DNA of 64,000 nucleotides, from NCBI GenBank assembly GCA_965230845.1, contig OZ246021.1:57184-121183 (forward strand). Reading direction: 5' to 3'. The position numbers were made by a program, and so were the translations under genes. This DNA comes from Aquimarina sp. Its GTDB lineage: Bacteria > Bacteroidota > Bacteroidia > Flavobacteriales > Flavobacteriaceae. Positions 1 through 1,575 of this stretch are shown in pieces. Position 1 is the first letter of the stretch, and every line of letters begins with the position of its first letter. The notes below the pieces were generated by a model. That model was given only the letters and a program-made list of their open reading frames with translations, did no database searches and was not told where the DNA came from.

Positions 1-1575
1 ACTATTCATACTCGGTACATTCATTGCAAACATAGAACCGATAATACGTTCTCCTTTCTTATCTTGTAATTTACCATATTCGATCCAGGCATCTTTCATT
101 TCAGATTCTGTAAACTCATCATGTGGTAAAGAGTTCGGATCTACAATACTGTCTACTTTCTTTTCCTGATGTTCTTTCTTTTTACGAATACTACTCAAGG
201 ATAATCCCGAAGTCTTTTTACGAGGAGAAGATATAGAAAGATTATTTTTAGTTTCAGTAGCTGGTGTTGGAGTAACCACGTCACTTTCTGTACTACTTAC
301 TTCTCGATCTATGGTTTGAACATTTTCTTTTTCCTGAATATTACTATCTGTTGTTTCTACTGAAACAGGAATGGGTTCAGGTACCGGGTCTGTATTAGGA
401 ACAGGCTTCGTTTCAACCTTCTCTTTAATCTCTTGATTAATTTTTATAGGTTGGATACCTTTTTCTTTGAAATAAGAAGGAGGAATTATGTAGGGTTTGT
501 CATTTTTTTTTTCTCCATCCGGAGTAAGGATAGAGGCAAGCTGCATCAAACATAGTTCAACCAGTAATCTTTGATTACGACTTGTTTTATATTTCAAATC
601 ACAATCATTGGCCAATTCAATTCCTTTTATAAGAAATGCGTGTGATGCTTTTTGCGATTGCTCTAGATATTTTGCTTTGGTTTGTTCTCCTACTTCAAGA
701 AGATTAATGGTAGCTTGATTTTTGCAGACCAAAAGATCTCTGAAATGAGATGCCAATCCTGCAATAAAATGGTGCCCATCAAATCCCTGAGCTAGAATAT
801 GATTAAACTCAATAAGTAATTGAGGAATATTATTTTGTAAAATCAAATCGGTAGCCTTAAAATAGGTCTCGTAATCGAGTACGTTCAAATTTTCGGTTAC
901 CGCTTGTCTAGTTAAGTTTTTACCACTGAAACTAACAACCCGATCAAAAATAGACAAGGCATCTCGCATTGCTCCATCTGCTTTTTGCGCAATAATTTGC
1001 AACGCATCTTCATCGGCATTAATTCCTTCTTGAGCTGCAACCTGCATCAGATGATTTTTGGCATCAGTTACCGTGATTCTTTTGAAATCAAAGATTTGAC
1101 ATCTGGATAAAATCGTTGGAATGATCTTATGCTTTTCTGTGGTAGCTAATATAAAAATAGCGTGCTTTGGAGGTTCTTCTAATGTTTTTAGGAACGCATT
1201 AAAAGCAGCTTGGGATAACATATGAACCTCATCGATGATATAGACTTTGTATTTTCCTACTTGTGGAGGAATACGTACCTGATCAATAAGATTCCGAATA
1301 TCGTCTACAGAGTTGTTGGAAGCGGCATCAAGCTCAAAAATATTGAATGCAAAATCTTCATCTGGATGTTCGTTTCCATCTTGATTGATTGTTTTTGCCA
1401 ATATTCTTGCACAAGAGGTTTTACCAACTCCTCTCGGGCCAGTAAATAGCAAAGCCTGCGCCAAATGGTTGTTTTCTATAGCATTCAGCAAAGTATTGGT
1501 AATAGCCTGTTGCCCTACAACATCCTTGAAGGTTTGAGGTCTATATTTCCGCGCAGATACTATAAAGTGTTCCAT
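1..1575 (-). CDS. dnaX: DNA polymerase III subunit gamma/tau (C-terminus runs off the window edge; absent from ORF track)
   Basis: Manual translation from ATG at 1575: MEHFIVSARKYRPQTFKDVVGQ...LLFTGPRGVGKTSCARILAK (Walker A). The frame reads as continuous dnaX in the stretches translated and is open from 600 to position 1. Confidence 0.96.
   Translation of the reverse strand, partial: MEHFIVSARKYRPQTFKDVVGQQAITNTLLNAIENNHLAQALLFTGPRGVGKTSCARILAKTINQDGNEHPDEDFAFNIFELDAASNNSVDDIRNLIDQVRIPPQVGKYKVYIIDEVHMLSQAAFNAFLKTLEEPPKHAIFILATTEKHKIIPTILSRCQIFDFKRITVTDAKNHLMQVAAQEGINADEDALQIIAQKADGAMRDALSIFDRVVSFSGKNLTRQAVTENLNVLDYETYFKATDLILQNNIPQLLIEFNHILAQGFDGHHFIAGLASHFRDLLVCKNQATINLLEVGEQTKAKYLEQSQKASHAFLIKGIELANDCDLKYKTSRNQRLLVELCLMQLASILTPDGEKKNDKPYIIPPSYFKEKGIQPIKINQEIKEKVETKPVPNTDPVPEPIPVSVETTDSNIQEKENVQTIDREVSSTESDVVTPTPATETKNNLSISSPRKKTSGLSLSSIRKKKEHQEKKVDSIVDPNSLPHDEFTESEMKDAWIEYGKLQDKKGERIIGSMFAMNVPSMNS

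Follow-up and report, generated by a model that had tools for sequence, protein, structure and literature searches.

The dnaX gene, which encodes the gamma/tau subunit of DNA polymerase III, lies on the minus strand at the left end (1..1575) of the 64,000-nucleotide stretch of an Aquimarina sp. genome analyzed here (GenBank assembly GCA_965230845.1, contig OZ246021.1, positions 57,184 to 121,183 of the forward strand; hereafter the window, to which all positions refer unless a C1 prefix marks a genome coordinate). A run of ten adenines in this gene (A10, in GAA AAA AAA AAT; 503..512, minus strand), situated where clamp-loader domain III gives way to the tau-specific linker, is probably a programmed transcriptional-slippage site of the type known from Thermus thermophilus, through which a single gene would give rise to both tau and gamma. 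Transcriptional slippage is favored over a -1 ribosomal shift because tau is found in all three frames relative to the run among related bacteria, because no stimulator of the Escherichia coli type accompanies the run, and because an RNA hairpin ends at the 5' edge of the run.

We envisage that, as the ten template Ts are copied, the 9-10 bp RNA-DNA hybrid within RNA polymerase would consist entirely of rA:dT pairs and that the transcript could realign without cost, such that mRNAs would exit with ten As or with one or more As gained or lost. The templated mRNAs, along with those that differ by three As in either direction, would be translated into full-length tau of 605 residues, which bears the C-terminal part that is missing from gamma. 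In E. coli, this C-terminal part of tau holds the helicase- and polymerase-binding domains. Messages with one additional A would encounter a TGA at once and those with one A fewer or two more a TAA a few codons on, and these off-frame mRNAs would specify a gamma of 358-363 residues, corresponding to the clamp-loader core (domains I-III). We predict that RNA polymerase slips at this run in Aquimarina with some efficiency, and that the resulting gamma is both made and used. An 8-bp nascent-RNA hairpin that ends where the run begins probably confines the hybrid to the homopolymer and blocks backtracking, and would so stimulate or tune slippage, as does the stem-loop at a Roseiflexus insertion sequence (IS) element; the geometry of hairpin and run in dnaX is that of an intrinsic terminator in which As replace the Us.

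The A10 run and the frames of dnaX

The minus strand reads ...CCG GAT GGA GAA AAA AAA AAT GAC AAA..., with the ten As at positions 512..503 followed by T502, G501 and A500. One extra A converts this stretch into GAA AAA AAA AAA TGA, placing a stop straight after the run (TGA, 500..502, minus strand), in the frame that a -1 ribosomal shift would also enter, and the gamma encoded in this manner has 358 residues from Met10 and ends in ...DGEKKK. One A less gives GAA AAA AAA ATG ACA AAC CCT ACA TAA, with the stop five codons on (TAA, 486..488, minus strand) in the frame that two extra As would also open, yielding a gamma-length product of 362 residues that ends in ...GEKKMTNPT. Frame 0, on the other hand, runs for 251 codons from the first codon of the run to the end of tau, which differs from the two-frame 'reversed' arrangement described below for other Bacteroidota. 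A sense-strand A run of at least nine nucleotides at the gamma/tau border, immediately after domain III, together with a tau in the templated frame and nearby stops in both other frames, is the arrangement of the Thermus-type site, and all of these features are present here.

These details had largely been anticipated by a first-pass annotation of the window made from the sequence alone. On re-reading, its placement of the A10 in GAT GGA GAA AAA AAA AAT GAC (T503-512 on the plus strand) proved exact, and the sequence agrees with its statements that one extra A leads to GEKKK-TGA after 358 residues, counted from the ATG at 1575, and that one A less leads to the TAA five codons later. Its numbering of the preceding glutamate as E355 likewise counts from the ATG at 1575, a choice that is backed by the family alignment considered at the end of this section, and the run does lie just after the clamp-loader core, as it had said, since the domain III match ends at residue 358 of the open reading frame (ORF).

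To place the run in its phylogenetic context, 161 dnaX loci from Bacteroidota were compared, comprising samples at the level of the genus, order, class and phylum as well as 80 named genomes. Aquimarina mytili is the closest to ours among the latter, with Flavobacterium, Kordia and Mariniflexile coming next. The end of domain III served as the anchor for every locus. A run of 9 to 13 As occurs at the domain III/IV border in 133 of the 161 loci, and it is exactly ten As long in 113. Lineages differ in whether the first A of the run is the first, second or third base of its codon, and the flanking residues are poorly conserved, indicating that the constraint is on the nucleotide run and not on a fixed string of codons. 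About 80 loci encode tau in frame 0, whereas 46 require one additional A (+1A) to reach tau and 7 require the loss of one A (-1A), although these counts are approximate by one or two because the frame of one locus (L154) was mis-assigned and two others (L121 and L156) are cut off by the ends of their contigs. At least 30 switches between these layouts were counted on a tree built from the N-terminal 350 residues. The frame moves through one-base insertions or deletions located just 3' of an unchanged A10, as exemplified by A10-TGACC at locus L007 versus A10-GGCC at L014, and by a pair of close relatives with A10-TGACCAACC versus A10-GGCCAGCC. Assembly error was considered as the cause of these frame differences and was rejected, as the A10 is unchanged and the insertions or deletions lie just 3' of it.

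The bacteria in which this has been studied cannot dispense with tau (bioRxiv 10.1101/2022.11.10.516041). Since it is out of frame in 53 of the relatives (46 +1A and 7 -1A), these bacteria must recode at the run, and judging from their sequences the run must therefore be recoding-active in this lineage, for it is solely via the run that they reach the essential tau frame. The first-pass annotation had proposed that tau and gamma are both made from this gene by recoding, and this proposal is supported by the 53 recoding-dependent relatives and by the fact that not one of the 133 run-bearing Bacteroidota loci has its run interrupted by an AAG codon, a break that the annotation had listed as evidence against its proposal. 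Where tau is in frame, the other frames are closed early: in the 80 in-frame loci, the alternative-frame stops stand at a median of 1 and 5 codons, compared to 7 and 10 codons at control positions in the same genes, and the longer of the two distances never exceeds 17 codons.

The same annotation had also suggested that an alignment of related genes would reveal a conserved run with a length wandering between 9, 10 and 11. Conservation of the run is indeed what is seen (A10 in 113 of the 161 loci), but the wandering length is not borne out, because the run stays at A10 while changes on its 3' side shift the frame. The odd lengths that do occur may be genuine or may stem from errors in assembling homopolymers: the run is A9 in Flavobacterium sp. 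YO12 (L101) but A10 in congeners whose flanks are identical, L107 has A12, L156 has A13, and L161 and L030 are likewise odd, with A12 or A13. No run of six or more As follows domain III in five metagenome-assembled genomes of Bacteroides, Bacteroidaceae or Bacteroidales (L118, L131, L141, L153 and L162), nor in loci from other families of the phylum (L066-L069, L071-L074, L078 and L080), and tau is in frame in all of these. It appears from these runless genes that the recoding site was lost, or never gained, in some lineages.

Long A runs are uncommon in this genome, which measures 5.44 Mb with a GC content of 36%. Within the 64-kb window, the dnaX run is the sole A10 or T10, compared with an average of 3.8 in dinucleotide shuffles, and the entire genome holds ten A or T runs of at least ten nucleotides, two of which lie inside long ORFs. 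The approximately 3,800 long ORFs contain 584 Lys-Lys-Lys tripeptides, of which just 13 are written as AAAAAAAAA, when about 246 would be expected from the 75% usage of AAA. Thus, A9 in the form of AAAAAAAAA is avoided about 19-fold in coding DNA, AAG accounting for the remaining 25% of lysine codons, and the genome has 45 coding A9 or T9 runs and two coding A10 runs. Given this strong avoidance of long A runs in coding DNA, the dnaX run is an exception that calls for a reason. The other A10 within a long ORF (C1:2699040-2699049) is found in an ORF of about 540 codons that also contains an A9 105 nucleotides upstream (C1:2698935-2698943). Its product resembles a multi-pass membrane protein whose C-terminal portion is thioredoxin-like, the two runs encoding PAKKKTT and LEKKKGS, and from its sequence this ORF is a possible second slippage-prone gene of the genome.

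The assignment of the gene itself is straightforward. The dnaX ORF continues to the left of the window for a further 243 nucleotides, up to C1:56941, giving 614 codons from the first ATG (1602). As expected for a DnaX protein, AAA+ clamp-loader domains I-III, recognized by the Pfam families DNA_pol3_delta2, DNAX_ATPase_lid and DNA_pol3_gamma3 (PF13177, PF22608 and PF12169), are followed by a tau-specific C-terminal region; the DNA_pol3_gamma3 (domain III) match stops at ORF residue 358 of 614, and the Pfam search returned no match of its own for the final 250 residues. The NCBIfam equivalog NF011531 is matched with 726.6 bits (cut-off 685), ORF residues 10-614 aligning with profile positions 1-613. 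The ATG at 1602 (MAAIFNFVA...) opens the longest ORF, but the match to the family profile sets in with the ATG at 1575 (MEHFIVSARKYRPQ...), which is ORF residue 10, so that the true start is probably this second ATG rather than the in-frame ATG upstream, and tau would comprise 605 residues from Met10. A gene for bacterial RNase P RNA of class A (RF00010, 202.7 bits, E 1e-65) occupies 1682-1983 on the plus strand, about 100 nucleotides upstream of dnaX and on the other strand, the two genes thus being divergent.

The hairpin upstream of the run

Directly upstream of the A10, the dnaX transcript is predicted to fold into a hairpin that abuts the 5' edge of the run (513..535, minus strand), with a stem of 8 bp and a stability of about -10 kcal/mol. 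It is formed by the 5' arm CUCUAUCC (535-528), the loop UUACUCC (527-521) and the 3' arm GGAUGGAG (520-513), the last base of which directly precedes the run, and it overlaps the codons for Ser-Ile...Asp-Gly-Glu. When hairpins were forced to end 0-3 nucleotides before each of the 1,049 genomic runs of eight or more As, the value for dnaX (-10.1 kcal/mol) was reached by four runs (0.4%), the mean being -1.2 kcal/mol.

A hairpin in this position is not peculiar to Aquimarina. The 133 run-bearing loci were grouped into 78 clusters, between which the last 24 bases upstream of the run are less than 60% identical. When a hairpin is constrained to terminate at a given offset d from the run, its cluster-mean energy has a sharp minimum at d = -3..0, where it amounts to -3.3 to -3.6 kcal/mol, versus -1.0 to -1.7 kcal/mol farther upstream. 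The position next to the run ranks within the best 10% of positions of its own gene in 35 of the 78 clusters (binomial p 2e-15; Wilcoxon p 2e-10), and hairpins of -5 kcal/mol or better are seen in 50% of clusters as against 15% of control positions. Moreover, shuffling only the 5' 22 nucleotides while keeping the 3' 11 nucleotides gave p<=0.05 in 22 of 78 clusters, compared to 6.4% at control positions. The stems differ by lineage, with pairs such as GGCUGCC/GGUGGCC, GCUUGUG/CACAAGC, GUUCAGC/GCUGAGC and UCCGAC/GUCGGA, and no conservation of the upstream sequence was found outside the family.

Within the Flavobacteriaceae, each arm could be given an anchor of its own, the Met codon of the LMQLAS motif for one and the run for the other, which permits covariation to be assessed. 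Pairing then holds for 80% of alignment cells, a share that falls to 35-53% when the register is slid and to 71% in shuffles. Six of the eight stem pairs change on both sides, for example from AUC/GAU to GUC/GAC to CUG/CAG, and the covariation score of 0.274 (0.159 for shuffles) is equaled by none of 500 shuffles. The paired codons change their amino acids jointly, encoding Ile/Asp with AUC:GAU, Val/Asp with GUC:GAC and Leu/Gln with CUG:CAG.

The hairpin is present in all three tau layouts. At the seven loci that need the loss of an A (L015, L017, L021, L101, L117, L127 and L160), it has a mean energy of -9.2 kcal/mol and attains -5 kcal/mol or better in 7/7 cases, compared to a mean of -4.9 kcal/mol at +1A loci, the -1A sample (n = 7) being small and partly related. 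Judging from these sequences, the strong hairpins at -1A loci would be in line with a forward realignment that is promoted by the hairpin and yields deletions. The presence of strong hairpins at all seven deletion-requiring loci is consistent with the one stem-loop stimulator characterized so far, which promotes deletions.

It is tempting to propose on this sequence evidence that the dnaX site of Bacteroidota, including the sampled Chlorobi-like families, might be a two-part module in which a terminator-like hairpin, 0-3 nucleotides before the A10, sets both the frequency and the direction of slipping and thereby lets the tau frame move among the 0, +1A and -1A layouts, as it has done at least 30 times. 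We advance this scenario tentatively, holding it with rather less confidence than would be needed to prefer it outright.

Known recoding systems and rival explanations

The kind of slippage that we propose for the A run of dnaX is already known (Larsen et al., 2000; Antonov et al., 2013), and this genome has the Thermus layout inside Bacteroidota. In T. thermophilus, transcriptional slippage on an A9 run of dnaX was shown experimentally, according to the accounts given in reviews (Larsen et al., 2000, via PMC1088944 and PMC5009743), and any change in transcript length that is not a multiple of three leads to gamma (PMC1088944, PMC5009743). The resemblance is close, as the same gene has a sense-strand A run of hybrid length at the same place after the clamp-loader core, with tau in one open frame and close stops in both others. 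The two differ in that the run is A10 here and A9 in Thermus, in that Aquimarina belongs to the phylum Bacteroidota, and in that we infer slippage from sequence. They also differ in the covarying hairpin that is flush with the run here, none being mentioned for Thermus in the review passages that deal with it.

A second precedent comes from a survey in which two-ORF 'reversed' dnaX genes with a poly-A run were predicted to undergo transcriptional realignment (Antonov, Coakley, Atkins, Baranov and Borodovsky, 2013, PMC3711429, Suppl. Fig. S3), the cases being Flavobacterium johnsoniae, F. psychrophilum, Cytophaga hutchinsonii, Capnocytophaga ochracea, Chlorobi and Coraliomargarita. These genes share with ours the A10, its homologous position and the phylum, and the two-ORF layout is held by members of the same genus or family as Aquimarina (L014, L016, L018, L032, L061 and L100-L105). 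However, tau is in frame 0 in our genome, where recoding would give gamma. Since GeneTack finds only genes whose frame is broken, the in-frame layout could not have been detected in that study, which reports neither the -1A class nor an upstream hairpin. In the reviews covering Thermus dnaX and in the 2013 survey, the primary Thermus report lying outside that scope, we found no description of a hairpin upstream of the dnaX run, and the conserved 5' hairpin makes this site a possible variant beyond the known core phenomenon.

For the hairpin itself, the closest counterpart is the nascent-RNA stem-loop that stimulates transcriptional slippage in an IS element of Roseiflexus (Penno et al., 2015, via PMC5009743). 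In both cases a stable hairpin (513-535 here) lies directly 5' of the slippage motif in a terminator-like geometry, and the Roseiflexus stem-loop is proposed, in the account available through that review, to melt or limit the upstream hybrid and to prevent backtracking. As the review describes it, the Roseiflexus motif is heteropolymeric (T5C5), undergoes only a one-base deletion and depends strictly on its hairpin. The dnaX motif, unlike it, is a homopolymer that would be expected to slip alone, and by analogy the hairpin would act on RNA polymerase to tune slippage rather than to enable it.

Several observations weigh against transcriptional slippage tuned by a hairpin. With tau in frame in this genome, slippage would not be required for viability. 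The hairpin is not universal, reaching -5 kcal/mol or better in about half of the lineages, and 14 of the 78 clusters do no better than the median position of their own gene. The loci are related, such that the p-values given above overstate their independence, and the structure tested for covariation was taken from one of the aligned sequences, which favors it over the slid registers. By re-forming behind the ribosome, the hairpin might conceivably influence translation rather than transcription. A ribosomal contribution, through a -1 slip on A_AAA_AAA or sliding on poly(A), is also made possible by the tRNA complement, since tRNA-Lys(UUU) is the only tRNA-Lys type encoded in the genome. This is the situation in E. 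coli, where it makes lysine codons shifty (PMC5009743), and 21 of the 46 +1A relatives have an in-frame A_AAA_AAG. These last two features, along with a heptamer that is in phase, speak for programmed -1 frameshifting of the E. coli style, with tRNA-Lys slipping on A_AAA_AAA (or A_AAA_AAT) of an invariant A10 mRNA and translation terminating at the TGA. Indeed, E. coli dnaX is the same gene, its gamma terminates after about one codon of the -1 frame and its slippery stretch consists of lysine codons read by one tRNA-Lys type. However, the E. coli site features A_AAA_AAG, an upstream Shine-Dalgarno-like sequence and a downstream stem-loop (Rfam RF00382), and none of these has its equivalent at the Aquimarina run. 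The heptamer is A_AAA_AAA followed by AAT, a sequence reported to be far less shift-prone than A_AAA_AAG (PMC5009743). The 70 nucleotides downstream fold at -5.3 kcal/mol (z -0.8), no better than shuffles, and the Rfam search gave no match to RF00382 at E<=10; a frameshift cassette of the E. coli type was rejected on both grounds. The lone GGAG is 0 nucleotides from the run instead of about 10 nucleotides upstream and forms part of the 3' arm of the hairpin. Furthermore, the phase of the run varies among relatives and with it the frame of the heptamer, ten conserved As rather than seven are left unexplained, and relatives need shifts in both directions, unlike E. coli: a -1 ribosomal shift cannot supply the opposite changes that the +1A loci and the seven -1A loci need. 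We therefore regard -1 programmed frameshifting as unlikely. From the sequences compared, transcriptional slippage appears to be the only single mechanism that would serve all three layouts.

Could the ribosome slide instead along the poly(A) of a single mRNA species, across three AAA codons, and leave the run in any frame, with the hairpin re-forming behind it and biasing its movement? Koutmou and colleagues reportedly described ribosome sliding on poly(A) in 2015. Such sliding would account for tau in either alternative frame and would fit the avoidance of AAA-AAA-AAA in coding DNA. We nonetheless find it improbable, as slippage of bacterial RNA polymerase on nine or more As or Ts is efficient and general and has been shown for Thermus dnaX (PMC1088944, PMC5009743), as the conserved length of ten matches the 9-10 bp hybrid of RNA polymerase, and as a hairpin flush with the run matches both the terminator geometry and the slippage stimulator of Roseiflexus. 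It is also conceivable that there is no recoding at all and that the run merely starts a Lys-rich linker, tau being the sole product and slippage a tolerated noise. The in-frame tau of this genome would be in accord with this, as would the lineages that have dispensed with the run (several Bacteroidaceae, other Bacteroidales known from metagenome-assembled genomes and some families outside the class), which indicate that it is dispensable in principle. Yet AAG never interrupts the run in 133 loci in spite of its 25% share of lysine codons and the roughly 19-fold avoidance of AAAAAAAAA, the flanking residues and the codon phase vary, stops come unusually soon in both other frames, a covarying hairpin adjoins the run and the 53 out-of-frame relatives have no other way to make tau, all of which render this explanation very improbable. 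A Lys-rich motif conserved at the protein level was rejected on account of codon usage and variable phase. Finally, the run might be a phase-variation tract whose length changes in DNA replication to switch between forms of the gene, homopolymer tracts being classic contingency loci and one Flavobacterium assembly (L101) having A9 where its congeners have A10. This we consider hardly credible, because dnaX is an essential gene, such that inheriting a tau-off state would kill the cell, and because the length is near invariant (A10 in 113 of 133 runs) and the frame differences between species stem from insertions or deletions outside the run.

Implications of two DnaX products

It has yet to be settled why bacteria maintain two DnaX forms (bioRxiv 10.1101/2022.11.10.516041). 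The persistence across a large phylum of a device for recoding between tau and gamma, in spite of the many times that the frame was rearranged, argues that both products matter. For annotation, it follows that an in-frame dnaX with an A10 should be flagged as a two-product gene, and that the seemingly 'broken' dnaX genes of its relatives should not be called pseudogenes. Control of transcript realignment by RNA structure has so far been characterized for one IS element only, and a conserved hairpin that is flush with a homopolymer of hybrid length offers a natural and widespread test case for nascent RNA structure controlling realignment. If the two-part arrangement of hairpin and run proves to be true, dnaX of the Bacteroidota would provide the first known case of a cellular housekeeping gene in which slippage on a homopolymer is assisted by a hairpin.

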